Positions 947 through 41,436 of a stretch of 43,111 bases of DNA are shown here, in pieces. The stretch comes from an uncultured Bacilli bacterium. Its GTDB lineage: Bacteria; Bacillota_I; Bacilli_A; RF39; UBA660. The stretch spans positions 1 to 43,111 of the forward strand of contig CANRKS010000002.1 in assembly GCA_947631285.1 (NCBI GenBank), given 5' to 3'. The notes beneath the pieces were generated by a model. That model had not been told where the DNA came from. It searched no databases and saw only the letters and a program-made list of their open reading frames with translations. The first letter of the stretch is position 1. Every line of letters begins with the position of its first letter. The position numbers were made by a program, and so were the translations under genes.

Positions 947-977
947 AAAAAATAAAAAAGAAAGCGCTATCTTTCTT
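947..977 (-). terminator. rho-independent terminator after the 967-1746 gene
   Basis: Stem AAGAAAG (958-964) / CTTTCTT (971-977) with a 6-nt loop. On the minus strand it is followed by a T-run (TTTTTTATTTT). It overlaps the stop codon. Confidence 0.5.
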
Positions 978-1746
978 CTGTTATTAATTCACTTAAGTAA
1001 CTAATTTTGATATCTTGATAATTAATTTGATTAATGAGTAATTTAAAATCAGTAATAGATACATTATCATTAATATAAATTATATAACCATTTTTTAAAT
1101 TTTCTTTTATACTAGCTAAATTATAACTATTTAAACTTACACTAGCTTCAACTAAATACTTCTTATACTTAAGACATACATCTTTATTATTTTTACTAAC
1201 AAAACAAATATTTTTATTAAGATTATTATTGTCTAACATTGCTTCTACCTTTAAATAATTTTCATGATCATCATTGATTTGCTCATATAAACTATTTTTA
1301 TCAAAAGAATTTCTATCAATAAGACGAGTTACTTTTAAACCTATTTGACTAGCATAATTTAAGACATTCTGATTATTTTTAATAATTAAAGCGATATTTT
1401 TTTTATTAGGATTGCCATACTTAATTATCTTATCTTTATTATTTTCTAAGGATACCTCAGGCGTTATTTTATCATACTCTAAATAATAAGAATTAAAGGT
1501 ATCTAAATAACGCATATTATTATAACTTTTTAAAACATTAACAGCGTATCCATTAAGACCAGGAATAATGTATTCATCCTCAATAATGGCACTTACTGAA
1601 GCAACATTATACTCTTTAATATTTTTATTTATTTCTTTAACTAAACTACTGTTATTTACAACGATCTTACTCATCTTTTCTGTATAATAGAAGCTAACTA
1701 ATAAAACAAGAGCAATTCCCATATATTTAAAAAGATTTTTCATCAT
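967..1746 (-). CDS. membrane-anchored PdaB/YlxY-like polysaccharide deacetylase-family protein, possibly non-catalytic
   Basis: N-terminal TM anchor (YMGIALVLLVSFYY). IIPGLNGYAVNVLKSYNNM ... KYGNPNKKNIALII resembles the N-terminal part of sporulation-type NodB deacetylases. I cannot find the TFDD or HxxxH metal motifs. Confidence 0.4.
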   Translation of the reverse strand: MMKNLFKYMGIALVLLVSFYYTEKMSKIVVNNSSLVKEINKNIKEYNVASVSAIIEDEYIIPGLNGYAVNVLKSYNNMRYLDTFNSYYLEYDKITPEVSLENNKDKIIKYGNPNKKNIALIIKNNQNVLNYASQIGLKVTRLIDRNSFDKNSLYEQINDDHENYLKVEAMLDNNNLNKNICFVSKNNKDVCLKYKKYLVEASVSLNSYNLASIKENLKNGYIIYINDNVSITDFKLLINQINYQDIKISYLSELITEER

Positions 1747-1797: not shown

Positions 1798-2184
1798 TTA
1801 AGCTTCACATAAATTATTAAGAAGTGATTCATCTTTATCATCTTCTTCTTTTATAGCATCTTTCTTTTTAACTGATGATAAGAAGGTTACTCTTTCGGCG
1901 ATTACATCAGTTACATAGTGAGTTTTTTCATTTTCATCAAGATATTTACTTGTTTGCAGACGGCCTTTAACACCAATGACATCCCCAACATGACAATATT
2001 CAGTCGTGGTGGAGGCAATACTATTCCATAGAATGCAACGAACAAAATCTGTTTCATAAATACCATCAGCATTTTTAAAATTACGATTAACCGCTAAAAT
2101 GACCGTGGTTACTTTTTTATTGTTTTCAATAATTGAAATCTCCGGATTTTGAGTTAGACGACCTACTAATATAACATTATTCAT
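1798..2184 (-). CDS. ssb: single-stranded DNA-binding protein, short form (128 aa)
   Basis: OB-fold SSB pattern: MNNVILVGRLTQNPE, FVRCILWN, GDVIGVKGRLQTSKY, VIAERVTFL. The acidic C-terminal region lacks the terminal DDD(I/L)PF-type tip. Confidence 0.85.
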   Translation of the reverse strand: MNNVILVGRLTQNPEISIIENNKKVTTVILAVNRNFKNADGIYETDFVRCILWNSIASTTTEYCHVGDVIGVKGRLQTSKYLDENEKTHYVTDVIAERVTFLSSVKKKDAIKEEDDKDESLLNNLCEA

Positions 2185-2306
2185 TATTTTCCTCCTTTCT
2201 TAAAAAAATACATTAACATAAAATCTGGGATTTACCAAACTGCCATTTATCTATTATTTTGGTTTAAAAAAAGGTTAAAAAAGGATTCTTTAACTTGGTT
2301 ATTGCC

Positions 2307-2338
2307 AAAAAAATTACCAATTATTTAATAATTGGTAA
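2307..2338 (-). terminator. rho-independent terminator after sufB
   Basis: Perfect 10-bp stem TTACCAATTA (2314-2323) / TAATTGGTAA (2329-2338) with a 5-nt loop. On the minus strand it is followed by T7 (complement of A-run 2307-2313). Confidence 0.65.
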
Positions 2339-2349
2339 AAAACAATTTT

Positions 2350-3654
2350 TTAATCTTTAATTAATCTATTTAACTCTACAGCATATTCCATTGGTAATTC
2401 TTTTTTAAAATCGGCAATAAATCCCAATACCAATAATTCTTTACATTTATCTTCACTTAAGCCTTTACTCATCAAATAATTTAGTTTATCTTCACTTACT
2501 TTAGAAATGGTGGCTTCGTGTTCTAATGTACTACTTTCATTTTCTAAAATGTTTTTAGGGTATGTATTACTACTAGATATTCCATCTAATATTAAGGTAT
2601 CACATTTAACCTTAGCTAATGCTCCGATTGCAGAAGGAGTAATTTTAACTAAACCACGGTAATTACTTATTCCCCCATCTTCAGCTATACTCTTACTAAT
2701 TATGTTGCTTTTAGTATTTTTACCTATATGAATCATTTTGGCTCCAGCATCCAAGGCTTGTCCTTTTTTAGCATACGCAATTGATAAACTATTACCTACC
2801 GCATTATCGCCTTGTAAAATACAGCTCGGATATTTCATTGTTATTTTACTACCAATGTTACCATCAACCCATTCCATAATGCCATTCGAATCTACAACTG
2901 CTCTTTTCGTAACTAAATTATAAACATCCGTTGACCAGTTTTGAATAGTAGAATAACGACATCTAGCATTTTTACCAACATATATTTCTACAACACCAGC
3001 ATGCAGAGAAGACTCTGAATAACTTTTGGCTGTACATCCTTCAATGTATTCCAAACTACTATCATCATCAACGATAATAATCGTTCTTTCAAATTGGCCT
3101 AAAGATTCACTATCAATGCGAAAATAGCTTTGAAGAGGACGATCTAAATGCGTATGGGGAGGAATATAAATAAAAGATCCCCCACTCCATAAAGCTCCAT
3201 TTAAAGCCGTGTATTTGTTTTCGGCATAATTTACTAAATGGTTAAAATATTTATAAAAAAGATCAGGATATTTTTTTAAAGCATCATCGGTACTCATAAA
3301 AATTATCTCTTTATCCGTTTTATTGTGATGATAGACTACTTCACTTTCGTATTGATTAGACACACCATCTAAATATTTTTCTTCAGCCTCAATTACCCCT
3401 AAAGATTGAAAAGTATTTTTGATATCATGATCAACTTGATCCCATTTATCAGTAACGGGCTTTTCATTACTTTTATAATAATTAATATGGTCAAAATCAA
3501 GATCAATTTTCGGTCCAAAAGTAGGATTATCTAATTTTAAAAACATTTGAAAAGACTTAAGTCTAAACTCAAGCATCTTTTTATCTTCACCCTTTTTACG
3601 GGATAGCCAAACAATAAAATCTTGATCTAATTTTTTTTCCATATTTAACTCCAT
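2350..3654 (-). CDS. sufB: Fe-S cluster assembly scaffold protein SufB
   Basis: SufB hallmarks: FERTIIIVDDDSSLEYIEGCTA, RCRYSTIQNW, NLVTKRA, KMIHIGKNTKSNIISKSI, YRGLVKI, CDTLILD, EHEATISKVSEDKLNYLMSKGLSE. Confidence 0.9.
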   Translation of the reverse strand: MELNMEKKLDQDFIVWLSRKKGEDKKMLEFRLKSFQMFLKLDNPTFGPKIDLDFDHINYYKSNEKPVTDKWDQVDHDIKNTFQSLGVIEAEEKYLDGVSNQYESEVVYHHNKTDKEIIFMSTDDALKKYPDLFYKYFNHLVNYAENKYTALNGALWSGGSFIYIPPHTHLDRPLQSYFRIDSESLGQFERTIIIVDDDSSLEYIEGCTAKSYSESSLHAGVVEIYVGKNARCRYSTIQNWSTDVYNLVTKRAVVDSNGIMEWVDGNIGSKITMKYPSCILQGDNAVGNSLSIAYAKKGQALDAGAKMIHIGKNTKSNIISKSIAEDGGISNYRGLVKITPSAIGALAKVKCDTLILDGISSSNTYPKNILENESSTLEHEATISKVSEDKLNYLMSKGLSEDKCKELLVLGFIADFKKELPMEYAVELNRLIKD

Positions 3655-3737
3655 TACTTATAATACAATAAAATGATTTTAAAAACAATTGTATTTTAAG
3701 TAATCGCGCGGTAAAATATTTATAATAGGTGGATGGT

Positions 3738-4352
3738 ATGGATAATGAACGTAGTCTAAATAATTTAAAAAAGATTTTTCCTAATCTACAATATTTTTAT
3801 CTTGCTAATAATATTCTAACATTAAATTATAATGGCCATTTTGAAATGCCTTTAATATCTACCAATTTATCTTTATTAAATCCTAACCTTTATTATTTAA
3901 AACCTAATGAAATCTTTCAAGTAATCTATGTTTTAGAGCTTTTATATAAAAACTCTCTTTCCGAAAAAGAAGCAAGTTTTATTTTAGATTTTACAAATAT
4001 GTATTTAAATTTAAATGATTTAATAAAAAGTGGAACTTTAAAAAATGAAGAAGCGCGAGTTTGGTGTTTAGGCATTCCGATCGTTAAATCTTATGAAAAT
4101 ATATTTGTTAATAATCCAGCCAGTAAAATAATTGCTGAAGTAGTCAATAATCATGAAGATGAAATTATAAGTGGTAAAAACAAACAACCAAGATTAGTTA
4201 GAACTAATGATTCTGTCGTTAATTTTATGCCGGCGGAACCAGATTTAAATCTTATAGATTATGGCAAAGCTGGTTTTACCACTCTTCTTTTAATCGGCGG
4301 GGCTATTGTCTTTTCTGTTATCTATGTAACTTATTTTATCATTGGTCATTAA
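3738..4352 (+). CDS. hypothetical tail-anchored membrane protein
   Basis: ATG at 3738 follows AGGTGGA (3727-3733). The ORF-track start at 3729 is an in-frame GTG lying inside that SD. One C-terminal TM (FTTLLLIGGAIVFSVIYVTYFII). No recognisable domain. Confidence 0.55.
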   Translation: MDNERSLNNLKKIFPNLQYFYLANNILTLNYNGHFEMPLISTNLSLLNPNLYYLKPNEIFQVIYVLELLYKNSLSEKEASFILDFTNMYLNLNDLIKSGTLKNEEARVWCLGIPIVKSYENIFVNNPASKIIAEVVNNHEDEIISGKNKQPRLVRTNDSVVNFMPAEPDLNLIDYGKAGFTTLLLIGGAIVFSVIYVTYFIIGH

Positions 4353-4408: not shown

Positions 4409-4822
4409 ATGTTAAACGAAGAATATTTTATCGGGGAATCAAGTTATTCTAAAATGGATAATAAAAATAGAATTTGGCTTCCCAAATTTGCTTATAAACC
4501 TATTCAAGATACTAATGGTGAAGTTGCTCTTTGCCAAATTAATTTAGAATTAAGAGTTTATTTAGCTAATACTTATCAAACAATTTTAAATCATTATGAA
4601 AAAATCTTAAATGAAGCCAATTTAACTTATGAAGAATATACCAGAATTGCTTTTAAAATAGCAGAAATATGTGCCAGTTTAGATGATGTTATAAAGGTTG
4701 ATAATAAACATCGCCTTCTTATTCCTAACATGCTTATGACCCAAAACAATTGGCAAAATACTGATTCTTTTCGAATTAAAGGCTACGGAAAATATTTAAG
4801 TATCACCAAAAATAATAATTAA
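4409..4822 (+). CDS. MraZ-like protein (duplicated SpoVT/AbrB-type half-domains), outside any dcw context
   Basis: 137 aa, the usual MraZ size. Two DxxxR motifs in MraZ-like context: SKMDNKNRIWLPKF (res 15-28) and IKVDNKHRLLIPNML (res 96-110). AAGGGGGA SD 5 nt before the ATG. Confidence 0.55.
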   Translation: MLNEEYFIGESSYSKMDNKNRIWLPKFAYKPIQDTNGEVALCQINLELRVYLANTYQTILNHYEKILNEANLTYEEYTRIAFKIAEICASLDDVIKVDNKHRLLIPNMLMTQNNWQNTDSFRIKGYGKYLSITKNNN

Positions 4823-4827
4823 TCGTT

Positions 4828-4855
4828 AAAAAAATCCCCTTGAGGGAATTTTTTT
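4828..4855. terminator. bidirectional terminator between convergent genes
   Basis: A7-TCCC-CTTGA-GGGA-A-T7. The short GC stem is flanked by complementary A and T runs and overlaps the stop of the VirB4 ATPase gene. Confidence 0.5.
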
Positions 4856-6638
4856 AACCTACACTTGTTATGCCAAAAGAATCTAATTCTTCTTGCGTAA
4901 CTACAACATTTATTCTCATTCTTCTATTACCACATATAAATAAGCCTTGACCTTGAGGATAGAATTTAATACCTTCTTTTTCGCTTTCATTTAAGTCAAT
5001 TAATTGGGCTAAATCCTCTACAGCTTGTTTTCTTAATCCCATTATTAAATAATAAGAAGCATTGTCAAAAATAGCTTTTCCATGTTGAATAATAGATGGA
5101 GCCGCAAAATCAGTTGGTTGTTGCGTAATAATTAGAGTACCAGTGTTATATTTACGACTTCTTCTTTGAATTTGCGCTAAAAATTCAGCTCCCAATTCAT
5201 TATGAGATTGAAGTAATACATGAGCTTCATCTACCATCATAATCGTATTAACATCTTTATCTAAGCATAAGCCCCAAGCATATTTCAAAATATTAAAGAA
5301 TAAAGCATTTTTAATATTTTCATCACTATTCATTAATTCTTTTATATTGAATACAATGAAATCACTATTAATTTTTAATGATGTATGACCAGTAAAATAG
5401 TATCTTAACTCTTTTACTAAAGGTCTTACTTTTAATTCAAGTCTTTCCATAACATCTCTTTCATGGGTAGCATCAACCATTGATAAAAGACGTCCTTGAA
5501 TTGTCGCATATACATCATCAAAAGTTGGATACATATCACTAGTTAATTTAGTATAGTCAGTATTATAATCGATCCGATATCTCTTATAAGTATCTTGTAA
5601 AACTTCGCTAAATAAAGTTAAAACATCTTCTTCAATAGAAGGACTATAATATTTCATAAAGGCTCTAACTTGTTGAAGAGTTCTAGTTAAAACTGTATAT
5701 CCTAGCCCTTGAGCAATTTCTTCATCATCAACATCAACCACTATTTCTAAAGGATTTATCATACCGAAGTCTCCGCCTTTACCTAAGTCTAAGAAATCTC
5801 CTCCTAAAGTTTTCGCCATTTCTTCAAGTTCACCCTCAGGATCAATAGCCACAATTTTGCAACCATTTCTAATGTGGGTTCTTAACAATAATTTAGCCGC
5901 GGTTGATTTTCCAGTTCCTGATGTACCAAGTAAAATCATATTGGCATTGTTTCGGTTACTTTCATTTCTAATTTGATATAAAAATTGATTGAATAAAACT
6001 ACTCCCCCAGAAAAGTCAACACCAAATAGGCAAGATAAGCCAGGATCTTTAATACTATCAAAAACATAAGGATACATTGCTGCAATGGTAATTGAAGGAA
6101 TAGGAGTACCTACTCTTTCTTCGATATCTTGTTTAGGGAAGATAGGAACAATACTTTTTAAAACTTTTTCTTGTTCAAACATTAAAGCTACTCCTCCCAT
6201 GCCTAAAGCATTTAAGTAACTTTTAACTTCCATCTTTTTCATATCTAATTCTTCTTTACTATTAGCTGTAAGCATTAAATGCATTTGGAAATCAAATATT
6301 CTGGCATCAGTCGCCGCCAACATACTAACAAATTGCTCTAAAGATTCATAATCTTGACGAATCTTTTCTTGCATTGTGTTATCTCTTTCTGATTGATATC
6401 TAGTTTTTAAATCGGCAACTTCTTTATTAATCATTTTTTGTAAGACAGAAAAAGGTATGGGAATATGTTTAATAACTAATTTAACCCCTGAAATATTTGT
6501 TATATCTGATAAATAACCTACATAAATATTTTTAGGAAAACTAACAATTGTAATAATTGTAGAATATTTTCCCCCAATTCTAAATTCAGTAGGTTTAAAC
6601 TCCATCCCTTTGGGAGCAATTTCACTTTTTATATTCAT
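4854..6638 (-). CDS. VirB4-family T4SS ATPase, middle plus C-terminal ATPase portion (594 aa)
   Basis: Walker A GTSGTGKST, Walker B IMMVDEAH, LIITQQPTDF. The N-terminal stretch IAPKGMEFKPTEFRIGGKYSTIITIVSFPKNI resembles the central region of Gram-positive VirB4 (TrsE/TcpF/PrgJ/ConE-type) proteins. The ATG overlaps the upstream stop (TAATG). Confidence 0.85.
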   Translation of the reverse strand: MNIKSEIAPKGMEFKPTEFRIGGKYSTIITIVSFPKNIYVGYLSDITNISGVKLVIKHIPIPFSVLQKMINKEVADLKTRYQSERDNTMQEKIRQDYESLEQFVSMLAATDARIFDFQMHLMLTANSKEELDMKKMEVKSYLNALGMGGVALMFEQEKVLKSIVPIFPKQDIEERVGTPIPSITIAAMYPYVFDSIKDPGLSCLFGVDFSGGVVLFNQFLYQIRNESNRNNANMILLGTSGTGKSTAAKLLLRTHIRNGCKIVAIDPEGELEEMAKTLGGDFLDLGKGGDFGMINPLEIVVDVDDEEIAQGLGYTVLTRTLQQVRAFMKYYSPSIEEDVLTLFSEVLQDTYKRYRIDYNTDYTKLTSDMYPTFDDVYATIQGRLLSMVDATHERDVMERLELKVRPLVKELRYYFTGHTSLKINSDFIVFNIKELMNSDENIKNALFFNILKYAWGLCLDKDVNTIMMVDEAHVLLQSHNELGAEFLAQIQRRSRKYNTGTLIITQQPTDFAAPSIIQHGKAIFDNASYYLIMGLRKQAVEDLAQLIDLNESEKEGIKFYPQGQGLFICGNRRMRINVVVTQEELDSFGITSVG

Positions 6639-7201
6639 TAGCTCATCACCGTCCCAAAATAAATCGTTTCGCCACCATTTAAAAGATTATCTAAAATAAC
6701 TCTTAAATCACTATTGCTAGTTTGACTAGATTGTAGTCCCGCACTGGCAAGGCCACTAATCATATTATGAAGTTTCTTTTGTAAAACTTCCAACTTCTTT
6801 TCTTGAAATATTAAATAATATTCAGTATCAACAACGTTATATTCAGCACTCATAAATTGATTAGCTTTATTTATGTCTTGTAAAATTAATTTTCTAATTT
6901 CATTATTAGGAGTATTATTATAAAGACGTTGAAGTTCAGCTAAATACAAATTAATATCAACTGGTCGATCAGCAATTATAAGCCAAAACTCATAATCTAT
7001 CGTATTATAAAAATTTCTTAAATTATAAATGACATTATCTTGCATTTGACTATCCATAATAAAGATATTTCTTGGATGAACTTTTACTCCCGTTACATAG
7101 TATCCACTTTCAAGCTGAATCATTCCATTCATTATTTGTTTAACTGGTAACCAAGAGTTAGTAAATTTAGCATTATTTGTCGTTACTACTGATTCCTTCA
7201 T
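6638..7201 (-). CDS. VirB4 N-terminal domain encoded as a separate ORF (187 aa)
   Basis: LPVKQIMNGMIQLESGYYVTGVKVHPRNIFIMDSQMQDNVIYNLRNFYNTIDYEFWLIIADRPVDIN resembles the extreme N-terminus of Gram-positive VirB4 ATPases. 187+594 = 781 aa, about the length of a single-chain VirB4. GGATGGAG SD. Confidence 0.65.
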   Translation of the reverse strand: MKESVVTTNNAKFTNSWLPVKQIMNGMIQLESGYYVTGVKVHPRNIFIMDSQMQDNVIYNLRNFYNTIDYEFWLIIADRPVDINLYLAELQRLYNNTPNNEIRKLILQDINKANQFMSAEYNVVDTEYYLIFQEKKLEVLQKKLHNMISGLASAGLQSSQTSNSDLRVILDNLLNGGETIYFGTVMS

Positions 7202-7496
7202 GAATACTCCATCCTTTCCAATAATATTGTCTCCTGTTAGTATAAAAATTAAAGATATTTGTTAAAAGCTGCAAAACATTGTGATAATGAGGGACCGGCA
7301 GAACCAAAAAAGTTGCAATTAAACCGGGAAGTAAAACTAATATTAGGATCAATAAGCTCATACTCCTAATAATAAGAAGCATCAAAAACGACCAACCAAC
7401 ACCAATGGCTAAAATAGTTAAGTCCAATTTAGTAAACCAGCCAACTATTAATAATGATTTCTTAGTATTAGCAGGAATCAAATAATTATCTTTCAC
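7173..7496 (-). CDS. VirB3/PrgI/TcpE-like small membrane protein
   Basis: 107 aa with two central TM helices. GTG start with AGGAGGA 8 nt upstream. It sits immediately upstream of the VirB4 N-domain ORF and overlaps it by 29 nt, the usual VirB3 position. Confidence 0.55.
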   Translation of the reverse strand: MKDNYLIPANTKKSLLIVGWFTKLDLTILAIGVGWSFLMLLIIRSMSLLILILVLLPGLIATFLVLPVPHYHNVLQLLTNIFNFYTNRRQYYWKGWSIHEGISSNDK

Positions 7497-7518
7497 CTTT
7501 TTATTCCTCCTTTAACTT

Positions 7519-8730
7519 TTAAATTCCGCATAAGTCAATATTTTTATTATGTACATATGTTAAAATATATTTTAATAATACTGGTAACATAAATATAATA
7601 ACACATAATACGAATCTTTTTATAACTTTTTTTGTTGCCTTAGTTAATGCTTCTTGATCACTAGAAGCAACTGCTCCAATAAAATCTATAACTGATAATA
7701 CGATTAATAATATAATAGCCACATATTTAATAACATTAAACGCTACTACTAAATAATAAGCTGGATCTCCAGGAGTTGATGGACTTCCTAATAAATCAGA
7801 ACAGGTTTTTATTTCCGGCATTGATAATTCAGTAGTATGAAGATTTCCAGAAACATCTACATCACCAGGTGCATCTGTAGCTGATTTATCACTTATATAG
7901 TAGGTACTATATGGTGTGGTAGCAGATACTTTGATGGTTAAATTTTCTGCTGATGCATATTTACCATTTCCTAACCAAATTTTATTTATTGATCCGCTAT
8001 AAATTTCATAACGGTCTAAATCTCTTGTAACTATTAATCCTTCATCTTCAGTTGAAGTATAAGCTCGATCCGCAATGATGCCAAGATATTTTTTAGTAAC
8101 TCCATTAGCTAAATATTCACCAACTTCAATCGTTACGACTTCGTTCCCATCACCATCTTCTACTCCAGCGCCCCCATAATTATCAACATTCTTAGTATAT
8201 TGTTGACATGAAGTTGCACAAGTCATATTACAACCAGCTTTAGTTGTACAACTACTACTATCAGTGCTTGATCCAGATTTCCATTTATAGGCATTACAAA
8301 ATCCACCCATATCAACACAATCGCTCGTTCTAAAATCTTCAACTCCAGATTGACTATCACTTAAAATATAAACATCACTAGGACATCTACCAAGATTTTG
8401 ATATTCTTGTAAATAAGTCATAATGGCATTATCTGTAAAATTAATATTATGGCCATTAAAGCTAATCCAATTATTTGTCCCATCAGCATTGATTAAAGTT
8501 TGCTTTCCAACTCCATTTAAAGAAACATAAGCTCCATTATAATCAGCTGATAAAACCAAACTAGTTATTCCTAAAGTATCTTCACCATTATTTTTATAAG
8601 TACAGCTCACTCCCTTATTTAAAAGATCGCCGTATTGTTCTTGAACATCAGACCAGTTGCCACATCCAGTAGCAAAAAGTACCATCGTAAATACTAATAA
8701 AAATATTTTTAAAAATCTAATGCGTTTCAT
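7519..8730 (-). CDS. Cys-rich exported lipoprotein with C-terminal VirB2/TrbC-pilin-like two-TM hairpin (P1)
   Basis: AGGAGG SD. Signal peptide with a lipobox-like LFATG-C. About 300-aa Ser/Thr/Gly/Asp-rich exported region; 12 Cys in the protein overall. C-terminus is TM, then loop DFIGAVASSDQEALTKATKKVIKRF, then TM. It shares this motif with the upstream paralog. Confidence 0.6.
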   Translation of the reverse strand: MKRIRFLKIFLLVFTMVLFATGCGNWSDVQEQYGDLLNKGVSCTYKNNGEDTLGITSLVLSADYNGAYVSLNGVGKQTLINADGTNNWISFNGHNINFTDNAIMTYLQEYQNLGRCPSDVYILSDSQSGVEDFRTSDCVDMGGFCNAYKWKSGSSTDSSSCTTKAGCNMTCATSCQQYTKNVDNYGGAGVEDGDGNEVVTIEVGEYLANGVTKKYLGIIADRAYTSTEDEGLIVTRDLDRYEIYSGSINKIWLGNGKYASAENLTIKVSATTPYSTYYISDKSATDAPGDVDVSGNLHTTELSMPEIKTCSDLLGSPSTPGDPAYYLVVAFNVIKYVAIILLIVLSVIDFIGAVASSDQEALTKATKKVIKRFVLCVIIFMLPVLLKYILTYVHNKNIDLCGI

Positions 8731-8756
8731 TAATGTACCTCCTTAACTGAATGAAA

Positions 8757-9698
8757 TTATTTTCGGCCAGCTCCTCCACCACCAGAAGTGCCTCCAAAGC
8801 CTTCACCATGTAAACTGCAATCATTAGATGGTGCTAATAAACAGTTTAAGCATGACTTATATTCTTCTTCTTTAACATATTCTTCACTATTAAGTTGCAA
8901 TTGAGAAATTAGTGCTTTCAATAAATTAGGAAGAACAATTACAATGATACCAGCAACTACTCTTCTAATTAATGTTCCAGTAGCTTTAGAAATTGCTTTT
9001 TCATCATTAGATGTTACAGCTTTTCCAAAATCGACCATTCCTAAAACAATGATTATAAGAGGAATAATATAAATGGCAAGCCATAATATTTTTCCAATTA
9101 AAATTACGGCATTTCTTACATTTTCATTTGCACATACATTGTTATATTGTAAATTTGGCGTAGATGTACTTGGCTTAAAATTATCCCCAGGCGCAGGAGT
9201 AAGAGTTCCGCTTCCTTGCTCTTCTTCATTATTTTCAGAAGAATTATTGCCTGAATTTCCATTAGAAGCCGTATTTATAGAACACGCAATAATATAATAT
9301 TCATTACCTTTAGTATCCTTACTATTATATAGTAAAAAATATTTAGCGGCAGAATCTTGGCAAGAAACATTAACACTACTATCTAATTCACCATTATTAA
9401 CAATGCTTCTACTGTATACACAACCCGTTACTGTTTTAGTTTCACTTGGAGTTGTAATTTTTACAGAAGCCATTTTTATAAAATAATCATTAGATGAACA
9501 GCTTTTAACACTACTAAATTGCAAATTTTTATTATCACTAGTTGCTGAGTATTCTACTGATCCACCACCATCAGATTCATAAGTTGCATTTGGACTTACA
9601 GCAGCCATAGGATTTTCTAACAAAAAAAACTCTATGAAAACCACTATTAAAGCATACAAAAACAGTCTTATCTTTTTGGCTTTTTTCATATTTATCAC
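8757..9698 (-). CDS. Cys-rich exported protein with C-terminal VirB2/TrbC-pilin-like two-TM hairpin (P2)
   Basis: Signal peptide (IRLFLYALIVVFIEFFLLENPMAA). Low-complexity N/S/G/E linker. C-terminal TM, then loop DFGKAVTSNDEKAISKATGTLIRRV, then TM, followed by a Cys- and Gly-rich tail. The start may be ATG 9689 rather than GTG 9698. Confidence 0.6.
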   Translation of the reverse strand: MINMKKAKKIRLFLYALIVVFIEFFLLENPMAAVSPNATYESDGGGSVEYSATSDNKNLQFSSVKSCSSNDYFIKMASVKITTPSETKTVTGCVYSRSIVNNGELDSSVNVSCQDSAAKYFLLYNSKDTKGNEYYIIACSINTASNGNSGNNSSENNEEEQGSGTLTPAPGDNFKPSTSTPNLQYNNVCANENVRNAVILIGKILWLAIYIIPLIIIVLGMVDFGKAVTSNDEKAISKATGTLIRRVVAGIIVIVLPNLLKALISQLQLNSEEYVKEEEYKSCLNCLLAPSNDCSLHGEGFGGTSGGGGAGRK

Positions 9699-9709
9699 AA
9701 CCTACTAGA

Positions 9710-9738
9710 ATTATAACATGTTTTTTAGATAAATAAAA
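9710..9738 (-). promoter_or_regulatory. candidate promoter of the minus-strand T4SS-like operon
   Basis: Extended -10 on the minus strand, TGtTATAAT (TATAAT = complement of 9710-9715), with a weak -35 TTTTAT 17 nt upstream. Confidence 0.4.
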
Positions 9739-9769
9739 TAAATTTAAAAAAGTTATTTAACAAAAATGC

Positions 9770-9800
9770 AATTTATTTCAAAATGGAATTTATTCCAAAA
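9770..9800 (+). repeat. two 14-nt direct repeats with 17-nt period in the divergent control region
   Basis: AATTTATTTCAAAA (9770-9783) and AATTTATTCCAAAA (9787-9800), 13/14 identical. They lie between the two candidate promoters. Confidence 0.5.
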
Positions 9801-9835
9801 AATATAGATAAAATGATGATAAATTTAAAATTTTA

Positions 9836-9873
9836 TGTTATACTTTTCCTGTGACATATCCTTAATATATAAT
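9836..9873 (+). promoter_or_regulatory. candidate promoter(s) of the VirB6-like gene
   Basis: Extended -10 TGtTATACT (9836-9844) and a second TATAAT (9868-9873), both upstream of the GGGGAGG SD and ATG 9899. Confidence 0.35.
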
Positions 9874-9898
9874 TTTTTTATTTAGGGGAGGTAGAAGT

Positions 9899-12517
9899 AT
9901 GTTTATTAATATTTTGAATATTCCATTTCCGTTTGAAAAACAAATTGTTTCATTTCTTTTGTGGATTGATTCAGTAGGATATAGTATTTTTAGCTATTTT
10001 TATAAAACTTTTATTAAATTAGCTCAACAAGAATTATTTCAAGCTGATGCATTTCAAAAGGTTTATGATAATTTATATTTAATTTTTGGCGTAATTGCTT
10101 TATTTATGGTTTCCTATATACTTTTAAAATCGATGGTTGACCCTGATAATAATCAAAGCAATAAACAATTAAGAGATATGGGGGTAAGATTTATTTTATG
10201 CCTTATTTTAACAATATTATTACCTACTATATTTGATTTTCTAATCGATGTTCAAAATGCCATCTTAGAAAGAAATGTTGTACCCAAAGCAATTCTTGAT
10301 TCACAGATCATTGTTCAGGTAGTCGATGAAAATGGAAACAATATTGGTAATGAACAATATATCGATCAAAATAATATTAATTTAACATCTGATCTATTAC
10401 AAATTAGATCCAATGAAATGGTAGCAACCATTATTGGAGGATTAATGTATCCTTTAAAAACCGATAAAGATGCTTTTGATGGTGAAAGAGCCGAGCCTCA
10501 TAAAGTAAATGGCGTATACCATTACTATGAATCTTGGAATAACGAAAATAGTAATAAAGAATGGACTACTGATGTTTCAGAATGGTGGGATGGCAGTGCC
10601 AAAACAGTAGCTATGAGTATTGGATGCGGTGTTGGTATTGCTGGAACTATACTTTTGACTGTTGCTACTGGTGGAGCTGCAGCTGCTGCTGGTTCAACGG
10701 CATTAGTCGTTGCTGGTTCTGCAGGAGCAACAGCCACTGTTGGAGGAGTATCCCTAATAAGCCTTCTCCTTAGTTGTATTGCCGGAGGAGGAATAGCCTT
10801 AAGTGGTGGTGAACTTGCAGCAACTATAAGTGCTCATGAATTTACTTGGACTAATGCTTTAGAGGCTATTACTACTTATGGTAATTTTTCTCAAATAACC
10901 TTATTTGCTCAAGACATTGTAGATGGTAGGTTCCATTATACACCTATTATTTCTACCATTGTAGTTGGCTTACTAGTTTATATGATTGTAAGCTTCTGCT
11001 TCGATGTAGTTGTAAGACAAGCTAAGTTAATATTTTATCAATTGCTTGGGCCTTTATGCTTTATGATGAGCGTTTTGCCAAGCAAAAAAGATCTCCTTAA
11101 AAATTGGTTTAAAGTTGTAGTAACTACTTGGCTAGAAATATTCATTCGAATTGCTGTTTTGTGTTTTGTCGTCTTACTAGTTGGTAATTTGAATTTAGAT
11201 AATTTAACTAGCATATTCCATCCGACAATATCGGCCTTTATCGTTTTAGGCATTATCTTATTTGCTAAACAAATTCCAAAATTATTTAAAGACTTAACAG
11301 GCCTTGATTCTGGTAATATGAAATTAAATTTAAAAGAAAAATTATCAGATAGTGGTGCGTATGCATTTGCTGGTGTAGCTCTTGGAGGAGCCAAAAGATT
11401 ATCAAGAGGCATAACTAGTGGTATTAAAAAGAATTATGAGCAAAAAGATGGAAAATGGCAACGTAAAAATGGCGTTAGTCTAGGAACTGTTATTAAATCT
11501 GGTGTTGCTGGTGGTTTCAGTGCTGTTCCAGGAACTGTTGCAACTCAAATTAACTCCGGACGAGCTGGATATAAAGCCAAAAGTTGGAAAGACATGATGT
11601 CTGGAGTTAATAATGCCGTATCTAAATCTGAAGCAACTAGTCAAAAATTCAGCAAATATATTAATGATAATGGAGGAACCGTTGGAGGTGTTACAAAAGC
11701 TCTTGGTAAAGATGCATTTGATTTATTCCTAGGATACATTGGATTTGAACCTGACTTCTCTGTTTTAAAAGAACAAAAAGAAGCTGTTGATGAAATTTCT
11801 AAAACTTTAAAAGCTATGAAAGCCGTTAGTGAAGATTATATTGATAAACATAAACATGAATTCTTTTCAGCAGGTGGAACAATAATAGATACAACTGGTA
11901 AACAAGTTGAAGTCACTAAAAATCTTATTGATGATTATCAAGAATGGGTTACGATGAACGAAAGGGCTGCGGAAGCAACTAAAAAAGGTAATACTGCTGC
12001 AGCTGCTCAATATACTCAATTAGCTCAAAAATTAGAACAAGCAGCTTTAAGCAATAATATTAGTTTTAAATCTTTTGCCAAAGATTATCAAAATAACCGT
12101 TTAGATATCATGGAAGCAAGAATTGAAGAATTGAAGAAAAATGGCGGTAGCGCTTATGACATTGCTGAAGCAACTAACGCATTTAACAAAGCGAGAAAAG
12201 ATTTAGTAGACAATTTCATAACCGATTCTCAAAAACATAAAGGATCAGAACAAGAAGCGAGTATCTTACGTGAAAACATTGGTATGTTAAATAAGCAATT
12301 AGAAGATTTAAGTACTTCGGCTGTTGTTAAAACATTCCATGACGGTGTTGAAGGCATTTTTGATGGTGTTACCGAAACCAGAGCTGATGTTAAAGATGCA
12401 ACTGATTTTGTTAAATCTTTAAAGAAAGCTACTGAAGTTACAGAAGCTAATATTAATAGACAATATAATGAACTTCAAAGAAGAAATGCGAAAAAGCCAG
12501 GAAATAAAAGTAATTAA
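9899..12517 (+). CDS. TcpH/PrgH/VirB6-TrbL-like polytopic membrane protein with long hydrophilic C-terminal extension (872 aa)
   Basis: About 460-aa multi-TM N-terminal domain, including a Gly/Ala-rich block (GCGVGIAGTILLTVATGGAAAAAGSTALVVAGSAGATATVGG). Then about 380 aa of Lys/Glu/Ala-rich, probably coiled-coil sequence. Size, layout and position next to VirB3/VirB4 genes fit Gram-positive VirB6 analogues. Confidence 0.55.
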   Translation: MFINILNIPFPFEKQIVSFLLWIDSVGYSIFSYFYKTFIKLAQQELFQADAFQKVYDNLYLIFGVIALFMVSYILLKSMVDPDNNQSNKQLRDMGVRFILCLILTILLPTIFDFLIDVQNAILERNVVPKAILDSQIIVQVVDENGNNIGNEQYIDQNNINLTSDLLQIRSNEMVATIIGGLMYPLKTDKDAFDGERAEPHKVNGVYHYYESWNNENSNKEWTTDVSEWWDGSAKTVAMSIGCGVGIAGTILLTVATGGAAAAAGSTALVVAGSAGATATVGGVSLISLLLSCIAGGGIALSGGELAATISAHEFTWTNALEAITTYGNFSQITLFAQDIVDGRFHYTPIISTIVVGLLVYMIVSFCFDVVVRQAKLIFYQLLGPLCFMMSVLPSKKDLLKNWFKVVVTTWLEIFIRIAVLCFVVLLVGNLNLDNLTSIFHPTISAFIVLGIILFAKQIPKLFKDLTGLDSGNMKLNLKEKLSDSGAYAFAGVALGGAKRLSRGITSGIKKNYEQKDGKWQRKNGVSLGTVIKSGVAGGFSAVPGTVATQINSGRAGYKAKSWKDMMSGVNNAVSKSEATSQKFSKYINDNGGTVGGVTKALGKDAFDLFLGYIGFEPDFSVLKEQKEAVDEISKTLKAMKAVSEDYIDKHKHEFFSAGGTIIDTTGKQVEVTKNLIDDYQEWVTMNERAAEATKKGNTAAAAQYTQLAQKLEQAALSNNISFKSFAKDYQNNRLDIMEARIEELKKNGGSAYDIAEATNAFNKARKDLVDNFITDSQKHKGSEQEASILRENIGMLNKQLEDLSTSAVVKTFHDGVEGIFDGVTETRADVKDATDFVKSLKKATEVTEANINRQYNELQRRNAKKPGNKSN

Positions 12518-12527
12518 GAGGTAAAAA

Positions 12528-12899
12528 ATGATAATAACATTTCTTGTAATTTATATAATAATTTTTTTAGGAGATTACTTCTTATTTAAAAGATTTAAAA
12601 TATTTATGATTAATGAATATGATTATTTATTAACCAGATTTAAATTAAAAGATAATGAGAAAGATCGTAAATTGGCAAAATTAATTTGTAGTTTACTTAA
12701 TTCATTAATTATTTCTTTAGTATCTACCTTTATCATTTATATAAAATTACCTCTTTATCTAAAATTTCCTTTAGCATTTATCTTATTAGTTGCGTTAATT
12801 TATAGTATTTATGGCCTTTATGGAAGTATACTAAGGAGGAAGCAAAATGAAAGAAAAAAAAGTAAAAGTAAAACAAAAAGACAACAATCAAAAAAATAA
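12528..12899 (+). CDS. small membrane protein with Lys/Arg-rich tail (123 aa)
   Basis: AAGAGGT SD 7 nt upstream. Three hydrophobic segments. Starts 10 nt after the VirB6-like stop. Confidence 0.5.
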   Translation: MIITFLVIYIIIFLGDYFLFKRFKIFMINEYDYLLTRFKLKDNEKDRKLAKLICSLLNSLIISLVSTFIIYIKLPLYLKFPLAFILLVALIYSIYGLYGSILRRKQNERKKSKSKTKRQQSKK

Positions 12900-13062
12900 T
12901 AATAAAGTTTACTTTATTCAAAGTTTATTGTTTTCTCTATTGTTTCTAGTAATATTAATTATGCGTTTAGAAATGACCTTTAGTTTAATCTTTTTCTTAA
13001 TTAGTATTGCGCTTACTATTATTTATGGTTACAAATATATTAATGATAATGATAATAAATAA
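12847..13062 (+). CDS. small two-TM membrane protein (71 aa)
   Basis: Strong AGGAGGA SD 6 nt before the ATG. Overlaps the previous ORF by 53 nt in the +1 frame. Followed by a terminator. Confidence 0.5.
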   Translation: MKEKKVKVKQKDNNQKNNNKVYFIQSLLFSLLFLVILIMRLEMTFSLIFFLISIALTIIYGYKYINDNDNK

Positions 13063-13083
13063 CCCCTATTCTGGGGTTTTTTT
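13061..13083 (+). terminator. rho-independent terminator ending the plus-strand T4SS-like unit
   Basis: AACCCC (13061-13066), loop TATTCT, GGGGTT (13073-13078), then T-run. Confidence 0.65.
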
Positions 13084-13249
13084 AATGATAAATAATCATT
13101 GCACTAAAACAATATAATTGCTCTTCTCCACTTACACCAATTGCTACTTGATACTTAATATCAATTACATCAACATCTTTAGAAAGAAAATCATTTATAC
13201 TTGTTTCTAAATCTCTTTCACACTCTTCATCAATTACTTTTACTTTCAT
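13082..13249 (-). CDS. Cse60-like small protein
   Basis: MKVKVIDEECERDLETSINDFL...VIDIKYQVAIGVSGEEQLYCFSAMIIY matches the pattern I recall for the about 60-aa Bacillus sporulation protein Cse60. ATG 13249 has GGTGA 8 nt upstream; the ORF-track start at 13264 has no SD. Confidence 0.45.
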   Translation of the reverse strand: MKVKVIDEECERDLETSINDFLSKDVDVIDIKYQVAIGVSGEEQLYCFSAMIIYH

Positions 13250-13325
13250 AATATTAGTCACCATAATTAATATAACAAATTTAATTATGATTTTTTGTCA
13301 AAATATAGAATTTAGTACTTAAATA

Positions 13326-13375: not shown

Positions 13376-14992
13376 ATGGAAGACAAAGTATATATTTTTG
13401 GTCATAAAAATCCGGATACTGATAGTGTTTGCAGTGCCATAGGCTTATCATATTTACAAAATGCCTTAGGAAATAATACTGAACCAAGAATTTTATCAGA
13501 AATTAATGATGAAACACGCTATGTTTTAAAAAAATTTAAGGTTAATATTCCTGAAATTCTTAATGATGTTAAATTACAAATTAGAGATATAAATTATCAT
13601 AAAAATTTTATGGTCAATATTAAAGAATCCGTTTATAATGCTTTCTTTTTAATGCAAGAAGAAAATATGAGTACTATTCCCGTTGTTAATGAAAATGGTA
13701 CTTTTGTCGGAGCTTTTGCTATGAAAGACATTGCTAAAAAAGAAATTTTAGGAGATAATCATTTCTTAACAACTAATTATAACCACATTTTAAAAACAAT
13801 TGATGGCAAAGAAATATTAAAATTTGATCAAGAGATAGATGGAGAAATAGTTAATATAGGTATTCGTAGTTCATCTGTTTATAATAGTGATATTTTTAAT
13901 TCTAAAACAATTTTAATTATTGGGGATCGCCATTCAATTATTGAAGATGCTTTAAATAAAAAGATAAAGTTAATTGTTGTAACATCAGGTAAAGAATTAA
14001 AGAAAGAACATTTAGCTTTAGCTCGGCAAAATAAAGTTAATATTATCTATACTAATAAAAATTCTTATGATACTCTTTTAACAATCAGTTTTGCTAATTA
14101 TATTGAAAGTTATCGCTATACTAAAGAATTAGTTTGTGTAAATGAAGATACTTATATATCTGATTTTAATGAAATAGTTAATAAAACAAGGCATAGTTAT
14201 TATCCCATTATAAATAAACATAATCATTGTCTAGGCTTAATTAAACTTTCTGATTTAAGAGATAGTAGTCCAAAAAGAGTATTTCTAGTGGATCATAATG
14301 AAATGAGCCAAAGTGTAGAAGGTTTAGATGAAGCCCAAATAGTGGGGGTTATTGATCATCATAAATTAGGAACATTAGGAACCATGGAACCAATTAATTT
14401 TCGAAATATGATTGTTGGTAGTACATGTACGATTGTTCATGAATTATTTAAAGAGAATAAAGTAAAAATTCCTCCAGTGATTGCTTCTTTACTTCTTTCA
14501 GGAATTATTTCGGATACACTCATGCTTAAAAGCCCTACGACTACGAAGATTGATGAAAAAGTAGTAAATGATTTAGTTAAAATAACTAATTTAAATCCTG
14601 AAAAATTAGCAATTGAAATGTTCAAGGCTAATGATGCCACTAAGTCAAAAAGTTTAAAAGAAATTATTTATATGGATTTTAAAACATTTAATATTGATAA
14701 AACTACAATTGCTATTAGTCAAGTTACAACTTTAAATGCTAAGACAATCTTAAAACAAAAAGCAAGTTATATTAAATTCTTAAATAAAGAAGCTCTTAAT
14801 AAGAATTTCGATATTATGGTTTTAGCTATTACTGATATCTTTAAAAATGGTTCATATCTTTTATATAATGAAAAAGCTTCTGATACTTTAAAAGAAGCTT
14901 ATAATGAAAAATTACAACAAGGAGATTTTATGGCTGAAATGGTCTCAAGAAAAAAACAAATACTTCCCCCAATTATCAAAGTTTTAAAATAA
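13376..14992 (+). CDS. ppaC: CBS-domain-containing family II (Mn-dependent, DHH) inorganic pyrophosphatase
   Basis: DHH motifs FGHKNPDTDSV, LVDHNE, VIDHHKLG. DHHA2 motif LSGIISDTLMLKSPTTT. An insert of about 250 aa between DHH motifs, as in CBS-PPases (538 aa). Confidence 0.85.
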   Translation: MEDKVYIFGHKNPDTDSVCSAIGLSYLQNALGNNTEPRILSEINDETRYVLKKFKVNIPEILNDVKLQIRDINYHKNFMVNIKESVYNAFFLMQEENMSTIPVVNENGTFVGAFAMKDIAKKEILGDNHFLTTNYNHILKTIDGKEILKFDQEIDGEIVNIGIRSSSVYNSDIFNSKTILIIGDRHSIIEDALNKKIKLIVVTSGKELKKEHLALARQNKVNIIYTNKNSYDTLLTISFANYIESYRYTKELVCVNEDTYISDFNEIVNKTRHSYYPIINKHNHCLGLIKLSDLRDSSPKRVFLVDHNEMSQSVEGLDEAQIVGVIDHHKLGTLGTMEPINFRNMIVGSTCTIVHELFKENKVKIPPVIASLLLSGIISDTLMLKSPTTTKIDEKVVNDLVKITNLNPEKLAIEMFKANDATKSKSLKEIIYMDFKTFNIDKTTIAISQVTTLNAKTILKQKASYIKFLNKEALNKNFDIMVLAITDIFKNGSYLLYNEKASDTLKEAYNEKLQQGDFMAEMVSRKKQILPPIIKVLK

Positions 14993-40326: not shown

Positions 40327-41436
40327 CTAACTCGTTTCTAACTTAGATGTAAGCTTAGCTGATACAGTATCTTCTTTACCATTTCTTACATAAGTAATTT
40401 TAATAGTATCACCAATTTTATGCTTATATAATTCATATCTTAGATAAGCAACATTACTAATACTAACATCATTAATCTTCGTAATAATATCGCCTACTTT
40501 TAATTTAGCTTTAGAAGCCACTGAATTTTCATAAACACTATTAATGATAACACCACTCGTAATATCTTCTGGAATATAACGACTATAAAGAGGATTACTT
40601 AAAGCATTAGTGACATTAACCATTTCAATACCTAAATATGGATATTCTGAAGCTTCTCCCTTTATAATAGCTTCGGCTTTTTCCACTACATTTTCAATTG
40701 GAATAGCAAATCCCATTCCTTCAACTCCTGTTGATTTTATTTTAGCTGATATTACGCCGATTACTTCACCATTAGAATTACATAATGGTCCACCTGAGTT
40801 ACCACTATTAACAGCAGCATCAGTTTGTAAAACATTAATGATAAAATCATTACTACTATTGTTAGATAAAGATACTGGAACTTGTCTTTCTTTACCAGAA
40901 ATTATTCCTCTTGTTACAGTCCAAGAATAGACATTATCTAAAGGTGCTCCCACTGTAAATGTTGTATCTCCCACTCTTAATGTTTCTGTTTTACCAATAG
41001 TTACAGCATCAATATTATCTTTAGCCTTTACTTCTAAAATAGCAATATCGGCATATTGATCACTTCCTAGTAATGTAGCTTCGGCTTCATCACCATCGGA
41101 ATAAGTAATTCGATAATTATCACCATCAGCAATAACATGGTGATTGGTAACAACATAGAATTTATCACCTTCACTTTTGTAAATAAAACCACTACCAAAA
41201 GCATATAAATCTTTTTTATCATAAGTTGAGACAATAACAACTGAATTGTAAACCTTCTCAACGGCATCAGCAATTCCCTCATCAGTAACTGTAACATCTC
41301 TTTCAATTTTAGTTACTGTTTCTTGAAATATAGCAGGAAATTTATACATTATTCCATACATTAAAAATATTCCTAAAGCAATTCCAAATAAAGTATAAAC
41401 AATTACTTTCGTTCTTCCTTCAGCTTTTTGTTTCAT
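40327..41436 (-). CDS. htrA: HtrA/DegP-family serine protease with PDZ domain
   Basis: Catalytic triad contexts TNHHV, DIAIL, GNSGGPL. N-terminal TM. C-terminal PDZ (KVGDIITKINDVSI). Confidence 0.9.
   Translation of the reverse strand: MKQKAEGRTKVIVYTLFGIALGIFLMYGIMYKFPAIFQETVTKIERDVTVTDEGIADAVEKVYNSVVIVSTYDKKDLYAFGSGFIYKSEGDKFYVVTNHHVIADGDNYRITYSDGDEAEATLLGSDQYADIAILEVKAKDNIDAVTIGKTETLRVGDTTFTVGAPLDNVYSWTVTRGIISGKERQVPVSLSNNSSNDFIINVLQTDAAVNSGNSGGPLCNSNGEVIGVISAKIKSTGVEGMGFAIPIENVVEKAEAIIKGEASEYPYLGIEMVNVTNALSNPLYSRYIPEDITSGVIINSVYENSVASKAKLKVGDIITKINDVSISNVAYLRYELYKHKIGDTIKITYVRNGKEDTVSAKLTSKLETS

Follow-up and report, generated by a model that had tools for sequence, protein, structure and literature searches.

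The question raised by this locus is whether a type IV secretion system (T4SS) can consist of a motor, a membrane channel and pilins, or whether further parts lie elsewhere in the genome. The window, i.e. the whole 43-kb stretch of DNA analysed here (contig CANRKS010000002.1), contains a block of eight genes at 4854-13062 for a VirB4 ATPase in two parts, a VirB3-like and a VirB6-like protein, two exported proteins with pilin-type domains (P1 and P2) and two small membrane proteins (sm1 and sm2). A first, sequence-only reading had described the block as an orphan T4SS-like module, possibly a domesticated apparatus, without coupling ATPase, wall hydrolase or other partners. The assignment to a T4SS-type module (VirB4, VirB3-like, VirB6-like and pilin-domain proteins) held, as did the domesticated, chromosomal state: the site is fixed, the block co-diverges with flanking genes, and relaxase, integrase and att repeats are absent. 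The view that the apparatus works without such partners was not supported, as a type IV coupling protein (T4CP) and a hydrolase follow VirB4 in most relatives and sit intact on another contig of a sister genome. Most likely, the block represents the membrane-and-pilus part of a monoderm T4SS that is inherited on the chromosome and has no relaxase, with the second half at another locus. The absence of T4CP and hydrolase is probably a property of the window rather than of the genome, and the impression of a "T4SS without coupling ATPase" most likely arises from the limits of the window.

Every open reading frame (ORF) of the window of at least 80 aa was scanned against Pfam and NCBIfam. These scans confirmed the earlier statement that the 43 kb contain no relaxase, T4CP, VirB8-like protein, wall hydrolase, replication gene or integrase. 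With the T4CP, hydrolase, lipoprotein and upstream small genes of relatives as tblastn queries, no remnants below E 0.01 were detected in the window or in three related loci (L004, L006 and L007).

Ancestral gene order and a second locus

Relatives were scanned at one genome per species, which gave at least 519 loci. Homologs of the VirB4 C-terminal part (VirB4C) number in the thousands; the top 120 share 83-100% identity and do not differ in length, and an exact look-up of the window VirB4 sequence returned no record. The best 80 of the at least 519 loci (VirB4 77-97% identical) come from uncultured gut metagenome-assembled genomes (MAGs) of rabbit, horse, human, chicken and ruminants, labelled Bacilli, Tenericutes or Mycoplasmatota. 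One relative locus is a CAG:460 scaffold; the genus CAG-460 belongs to RF39/UBA660, an uncultured order with reduced genomes (PMC13155120). According to record titles and one paper, the relatives belong at least partly to order RF39. The best plasmid-borne VirB4 relatives are about 30% identical or less.

A colinear, ancestral order was found in L001 (VirB4 91% identical) and in 31 of the 47 loci with enough flank. The series starts with one to seven pilin-hairpin genes and continues with the genes for the VirB6-like protein, VirB3, the VirB4 N-terminal domain (VirB4N) and VirB4C. Further downstream lie a multidomain wall hydrolase (SpoIID+NlpC/P60, SpoIID+M23+lysozyme, lysozyme+CHAP, or NlpC/P60 alone), a membrane protein or lipoprotein of 240-305 aa without family matches, a VirD4-type T4CP (T4SS-DNA_transf, TrwB_AAD_bind, TraG-D_C) and finally rhodanese and VTT-domain genes. 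On either side, the chromosomal flank is conserved over the range from L001 to L084 (VirB4 78% identical), which marks a fixed site. VirB4 identity was correlated with that of the flanking genes over 22 loci, using non-independent pairs (Spearman 0.83 for VTT, 0.83 for rhodanese and 0.94 for T4CP). Because the site is fixed, the flanks are conserved, VirB4 co-diverges with them and neither relaxase nor recombinase was found, the gene set is a vertically inherited chromosomal T4SS and not a roving element.

Trees were calculated by neighbour-joining without support values. In the VirB4 tree, the window, L004, L006 and L007, all with the same sufB-side context, form one clade nested within T4CP-bearing clades. 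At the basal locus of this type, L007, a Fic/DOC protein and a reverse transcriptase (L007:9902-12237) replace hydrolase and T4CP downstream of VirB4.

Two other deviations were noted among the relatives. A T2SSE-family secretion ATPase (404 aa, E 1e-123; L037:115-1329, same position in L039, L043, L046 and L047) is encoded divergently beside VirB3-VirB4 in a clade with no adjacent VirB6 or pilin gene, where the neighbours include spoIIP and murG. In one T4CP-less clade, collagen-triple-helix repeat proteins are encoded beside VirB4 (L047:11864-12469, L034, L041, L048-L050 and L056).

A T4CP-centred scan, which covered metagenome contigs, gave 47 loci with VirB4 upstream and four in which 8 kb or more of upstream sequence lack VirB4 (stand-alone T4CP loci L090, L091, L148 and L160). 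L148 comprises small genes, hydrolase, lipoprotein, T4CP and rhodanese, and exactly the pilin-VirB6-VirB3-VirB4 block is missing. Stand-alone T4CPs form clades congruent with the T4CP-less VirB4 clades. Two pairs of complementary loci were found, each within a single assembly: in CANQAK, L008 carries the VirB4 block without T4CP and L166 carries hydrolase, lipoprotein, a 277-aa protein, T4CP, rhodanese and VTT genes without VirB4; in CANRLB, the pair is L021 and L171. CANRLB (Lapin-011__bin94) holds two VirB4 loci (L018 and L021, one complete with T4CP and one without) in addition to L171, a stand-alone hydrolase-T4CP locus; the three loci represent either two systems in one genome or a bin that mixes two strains.

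The same division was seen in the closest genome. Assembly GCA_947631045.1, a sister species of the window (SufB 88% identical, dS ~0.8-1.1; dS and dN, synonymous and nonsynonymous divergence), has the window-type locus L004 on contig 3 (VirB4 97% identical to the window) and L173 on contig 13, and both pieces belong to ENA sample ERZ27249559. At L173, SpoVS is followed by genes for a 913-aa hydrolase (M23+lysozyme), a 305-aa protein and a 748-aa T4CP, and then by the canonical downstream flank, including rhodanese and VTT; the 10 kb upstream contain no gene for VirB4, VirB6 or a pilin. Walker A and B motifs of this T4CP are intact, and its dN/dS is 0.13-0.15 versus relatives. The nearest relative of the window keeps the "missing" T4CP and hydrolase intact, constrained and at the ancestral site.

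Since the sister assembly carries hydrolase, 305-aa protein and T4CP at that site, there is good reason to expect that the window's own genome encodes this half elsewhere, and both halves would assemble into one machine. In the proposed course of events, the pilin-VirB6-VirB3-VirB4 block would have moved next to sufB in the sub-lineage of the window; the VirB6 gene would have been inverted later, and the block of hydrolase, 305-aa protein and T4CP would have stayed at the old site. In the assembled machine, VirB4 together with VirB3 would supply the energy for assembly and remove pilin hairpins from the membrane, with the VirB6-like protein as the channel and the variable ectodomains of P1 and P2 exposed at the cell surface. 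A gap in the peptidoglycan wall would be made by the hydrolase, and a substrate, DNA or protein, would be delivered by the T4CP.

Several points weigh against this division of one system over two loci. The second half was seen in the sister species and not in the genome of the window, which is known from a 43-kb contig, and the two contigs of one MAG may come from different strains, though of the same ENA sample. The check covered one of three window-type assemblies besides the window, the other two being CANQLN and CANRAA; the T4CP of a second such assembly was sought via members of the P0154 cluster and none was obtained (P0262 gave no record). No VirB8-like protein was identified in the window or in relatives: the window gave no VirB8/TcpC-like match, and the 240-305-aa proteins of relatives have no Pfam or NCBIfam match. 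No relaxase was found that would point to a substrate, and roles of sm1, sm2, the tail-anchored protein u207 and a MraZ-like gene are suggested by adjacency.

Among the alternatives, the one that survives best is a truly T4CP-independent minimal apparatus, in which the second half was lost and VirB3, VirB4, VirB6 and pilins assemble a surface fibre or adhesin. It would account for the 43 kb without T4CP, hydrolase or their remnants and for pilin hairpins of P1 and P2 that carry hypervariable ectodomains (dN 0.6-1.0 versus nearest relatives). In Agrobacterium, pilus biogenesis requires VirB4 and not VirD4. T4CP-less T4SSs with variable pilins are known, and such a role has been proposed for Bartonella Trw (PMC12857230). 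This alternative is nevertheless unlikely, as T4CP and hydrolase are intact and constrained at the ancestral site of the sister assembly, which has the arrangement of the window, and a matching stand-alone T4CP locus was present in every split lineage examined. The T4CP of the sister genome likewise makes a truly T4CP-less system of the Trw, ComB or Ptl type improbable.

An ordinary integrative and conjugative element (ICE), or another conjugative element with relaxase, T4CP and integrase just outside the window, is very improbable. In its favour, the components have homologs in conjugation modules (mycoplasma ICE models, CD1110 family), the Bacillus thuringiensis plasmid pBMB64 has the same VirB3/N/C split beside a MOBP3 relaxase and VirD4, and an SSB gene lies 2.7 kb away. 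The left flank of the block is, however, syntenic in four species-level genomes at dS ~1, and L004, which reaches 8.7 kb further, shows RNase J and no transfer genes. VirB4 co-diverges with the chromosomal flanks, at no more than 30% identity to plasmid relatives. No relaxase or integrase was found beside either half, so that the ordinary ICE which the first reading had named as its own refutation was not encountered. Relaxase families gave no match in the window, the canonical cluster of L001 or around the T4CP of L173 and L166, in a search that a novel relaxase may escape; recombinase and integrase families gave none in the window or in any gene of the canonical cluster. The search for att-like repeats returned one pair, an exact 16-nt direct repeat (ATTTTAAAAACAATTG) at window 3676-3691 and 13787-13802 that brackets the block at 10.1-kb spacing, with its second copy inside ppaC and at chance level in AT-rich DNA.

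Components of the block and selection

The ATPase was verified as a VirB4-family member. The 594-aa protein matches NCBIfam NF045975 (mycoplasma ICE VirB4) at positions 294-891 of 894 (E 2e-102), at a score below the model cut-off (343 vs 590 bits), as well as the CD1110 family (3e-49), TIGR00929 (1e-23) and PDB 4AG5, a solved VirB4 C-domain (2e-56). Walker A (GTSGTGKS, residue 238) and Walker B (IMMVDE, residue 466) are both intact. The 187-aa VirB4N matches NF045975 positions 98-276 (E 7e-15), and an ortholog is annotated as PF26593 TraC-like. The 107-aa VirB3-like protein has weak matches to PrgI (0.0039) and TcpE (0.0038), matches NF045975 positions 2-96 (E 6e-4) and holds the position of the PrgI gene in pBMB64. 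Judged by these alignments, the 107-, 187- and 594-aa genes together correspond to one VirB3-VirB4 fusion, because all match successive parts of the 894-aa model. Of 83 related loci, 82 have VirB4N as an ORF of its own; the three-way split, found there and in pBMB64, is not damage.

The 872-aa protein has ~8-9 transmembrane (TM) segments followed by a long C-terminal helical domain. It gave no direct Pfam or NCBIfam model match and is a homolog of the 747-aa protein of L001 (E 3e-39). The family to which it is homologous over its full length, with 29 members, matches the VirB6-type conjugation membrane proteins MMCAP2_0566 (17/29, best 2e-17), pLS20_p028 (14/29) and Mbov_0396 (11/29); against PDB, the family profile returned coiled-coil noise only. 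Compared to the ancestral colinear order, the gene is inverted in the window, L004 and L006 and still colinear in L007.

P1 carries a lipoprotein signal (lipobox FATGC) and a fast-evolving ectodomain, covered by only 2 database homologs, which is fused to a C-terminal T4SS_pilin-type TM hairpin (residues ~307-396). P2 is exported, with a variable ectodomain, a pilin-type hairpin at residues ~181-295 and a CxxC...C tail. Both ectodomains are nearly unique in sequence. The two-helix membrane hairpin that ends both proteins defines a large local family, of which 18 of 24 members match Pfam PF18895 T4SS_pilin (best E 6e-6); in the alignment, conserved cysteines flank both hairpin helices on the outer side. 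Two such genes are present in the window and one to seven per locus in relatives. An AlphaFold2 model of P1 from a 17-sequence alignment (mean pLDDT 64) has a confident N-domain and two-helix hairpin and a poor middle part; the hairpin is predicted as two long helices at 323-356 and 359-395. Foldseek comparison of the P1 model with PDB gave nothing below E 0.7, so that the ectodomain fold says nothing on function. The hairpin profile searched against PDB sequences gave opsin and channel noise only (E >= 0.04).

Further membrane proteins were observed around the pilin genes of relatives. Four small proteins (86, 77, 172 and 158 aa; L001:1494-3981, also L148:4253-6794) show prepilin-like N-termini (MKEATGEL...), then one TM segment, and have Cys-rich tails. 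Together with a soluble 318-aa protein they are encoded upstream of the pilin array in 16 loci and are absent from the window; in L148 their genes are located in the T4CP half. These proteins could make up a second component that resembles a pseudopilus. In four loci, a TMEM164-like integral membrane acyltransferase (L001:4961-5692) is encoded inside the pilin gene array and may be a pilin-modifying enzyme, by analogy to TraX in F-type systems.

Selection was estimated from dN/dS of the window versus L004, L006 and L007 (dS ~0.75-1.2; Table 1). With the constrained T4CP of L173, purifying selection is seen on both halves. The block is maintained by selection and not decaying, in agreement with the earlier view that it is no decaying ICE remnant (VirB4 dN/dS 0.03 at dS ~1). 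That the block is a functionless leftover in decay, from a conjugative element or from the ancestral cluster, is barely credible, even though the gene set is reduced and rearranged versus the canonical cluster and the downstream part of L007 was replaced, since all ORFs and Walker motifs are intact, the arrangement is kept in four diverged genomes, and dN/dS of VirB4C, VirB4N and VirB3 (0.02-0.08) is tighter than that of SufB at near-saturated dS.

Layout of the window and neighbouring genes

The window (25-30% GC) was translated with table 11. Translation table 4 (Mollicutes), raised by a GC content of 27% and mycoplasma-like matches, was ruled out, as long ORFs read through with table 11. 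All eight ORFs were recovered intact at the coordinates and strands given by the sequence-only reading, including the divergence of two units from a common spacer and the overlaps at 6638 (ATGA) and 7173-7201 (Table 1). A strong Shine-Dalgarno sequence (GGGGAGG) precedes the 872-aa gene. A promoter scan of the window was at chance level (66 matches vs 55.8 +/- 7.3 expected from shuffled, AT-rich DNA).

Table 1. Coordinates of the block and adjoining features in the window, with dN/dS versus L004, L006 and L007
Feature	Position	Strand	dN/dS	Basis or remark
u207, 207-aa tail-anchored protein, no assigned family	3729-4352	+		role suggested by adjacency
MraZ/AbrB-like protein, possible regulator	4409-4822	+		weak MraZ match; role suggested by adjacency
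Bidirectional terminator-like hairpin closing VirB4 unit and convergent MraZ-like gene	4825-4858	.		15-bp stem, then T-run
VirB4 C-terminal motor part (VirB4C), 594 aa	4854-6638	-	0.03-0.04	NF045975, CD1110 and PDB 4AG5 matches, Walker motifs
VirB4 N-terminal domain as separate gene (VirB4N), 187 aa	6638-7201	-	0.02-0.07	NF045975 positions 98-276
VirB3/PrgI-like, 107 aa, two TM segments	7173-7496	-	0.03-0.08	weak PrgI/TcpE matches, NF045975 positions 2-96, pBMB64 position
P1 lipoprotein with pilin-type hairpin, 403 aa	7519-8730	-		local pilin hidden Markov model (HMM) 1.8e-27, lipobox
P2 exported protein with pilin-type hairpin, 313 aa	8757-9698	-		local pilin HMM 1.5e-30, alignment
Divergent intergenic region common to both units, 200 bp	9699-9898	.		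sequence read directly
VirB6-like polytopic membrane protein, 872 aa	9899-12517	+	0.23-0.58	homology to L001 747-aa protein, family profile matches
sm1 small membrane protein, 123 aa, 3 TM segments	12528-12899	+	0.22-0.25	T4SS link suggested by adjacency
sm2 small membrane protein, 71 aa, 1 TM segment	12847-13062	+	0.12-0.16	T4SS link suggested by adjacency
Bidirectional terminator-like hairpin closing VirB6 unit	13061-13078	.		
Cse60	13082-13264			between small membrane genes and ppaC
SufB (comparison)			0.07-0.09	

The block had been described as bracketed by terminators and by sufB and ppaC. Terminator-like hairpins are present at both ends; sufB and ppaC are not the immediate neighbours. 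Between VirB4 and sufB lie the MraZ/AbrB-like gene and u207, which are confined to window-type loci and sit where relatives have hydrolase and T4CP. sm1 and sm2 are restricted to the window, L004 and L006. For sm1, sm2 and the MraZ-like gene no counterparts were found in canonical clusters, and they are not claimed as T4SS parts.

Housekeeping genes of the window comprise SSB, SufB, a CBS-type family II pyrophosphatase, Nudix, DUF6020, GT2 and GtrA. The same scans identified a two-component system, an LCP protein, an LTA-synthase-like sulfatase, PFOR, enolase, FemAB, ArgRS, sortase, HtrA and Abi_2. The stand-alone SSB gene (128 aa) adjoins a lone SufB/D-family gene (window 1798-3654) with no sufC, sufS or sufU nearby, an arrangement kept in L004 and L007. 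Near the right end, an Abi_2 (abortive-infection-like) gene adjoins HtrA and RDD-family genes (window 41436-42380). Sporulation-type genes (Cse60, YlxY-like protein, SpoIIP, SpoVS and CoatF) occur in these genome-reduced RF39-like MAGs: besides Cse60 in the window, they were noted at window 967-1746, L047:1879-2829 and L173:5928-6188.

Comparison with known systems

RF39-like gut Bacilli are uncultured and genome-reduced, and have been reported without de novo nucleotide synthesis. It is tentatively proposed, with doubt prevailing, that they carry a vertically inherited, relaxase-less T4SS with variable pilin-fusion arrays that was co-opted from conjugation for a lifestyle function. Candidate functions may be attachment to or exchange with other cells, or relaxase-independent exchange of chromosomal DNA. 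If true, this would be a second independent case of co-option of the type known from Patescibacteria, and the first in Bacillota. The data point to a chromosomal T4SS comparable to that of Patescibacteria across hundreds of species of RF39-like Bacilli, abundant uncultured gut bacteria with reduced genomes, and the conserved gene set (two loci, VirB4, T4CP and variable pilin-fusion proteins) provides a concrete handle on their interaction with host or neighbours. In full-text literature searches (RF39 with VirB4, T4SS or conjugation-pilin; PF18895), no description of an RF39 system was found. The underlying system is a chromosomal T4SS found throughout the RF39-like lineage, with hypervariable pilin-hairpin fusions and a gene set repeatedly split over two loci. 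As sets are often split in this way, annotation from a window or neighbourhood wrongly calls "orphan" or "T4CP-less" systems.

A 2025 review (PMC12857230) describes DNA transfer as the sole role of almost all Gram-positive T4SSs known, with the essential chromosomal T4SS of Patescibacteria as the striking exception. In Patescibacteria (Saccharibacteria), this T4SS is chromosomal and relaxase-less, with divergent VirB2-like pilin arrays, and epibiotic growth is impossible without it (Wang et al. 2023, as cited in PMC12857230; Quinonero-Coronel et al. 2025, PMC12102498). It is the closest parallel to the system described here: both are monoderm systems that derive from MPF_FATA, are encoded on the chromosome and are common across an uncultured lineage with reduced genomes, with no relaxase nearby, and both comprise VirB3, VirB4, VirB6, hydrolase and VirD4-like proteins together with divergent PF18895-type VirB2-like pilins. 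In contrast to Patescibacteria, the host is a member of the Bacillota (RF39-like), VirB4 is cut into N and C genes, the set is often split over two loci, and several hairpins carry large, hypervariable and Cys-rich ectodomains as fusions, in one case with a lipoprotein anchor. Given best matches to Mollicutes and Bacillota models, descent is probably independent of the Patescibacteria VirB4.

The mycoplasma ICE module (CDS5 VirD4, CDS16 VirB6-like, CDS17 VirB4 and pilin-like Mbov_0395; PMC6030558, PMC12857230) gave the best NCBIfam matches for the window VirB4 and the VirB6-like family and a weak match for a pilin-like N-terminus. It has a surface lipoprotein partner (CDS14) and no recognised canonical relaxase, and relaxase-poor chromosomal transfer occurs through this related ICE pore (PMC6030558, PMC12857230). 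The mycoplasma ICE is, however, mobile (DDE transposase, random insertion), has a single fused VirB3-VirB4 of ~894 aa and needs no wall hydrolase, whereas the system here is fixed in the chromosome and has hydrolases.

Plasmid pBMB64 (CD1110/CD1115-type) has the same layout of TrbL/VirB6-like, PrgI-like, 227-aa protein and DUF87 ATPase genes, and its VirB4 is 28% identical to that of the window over 98% of the length. It differs by the relaxase and VirD4 directly upstream, by being self-transmissible and by having no array of pilin-fusion proteins. Bartonella Trw resembles the system here in its multiple variable pilin-type surface components (amplified VirB2 and VirB5 genes), which suggests a role in adhesion (PMC12857230). 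Trw differs in being Gram-negative, with an outer-membrane core, and truly T4CP-less, whereas the T4CP here is kept elsewhere in the sister genome.

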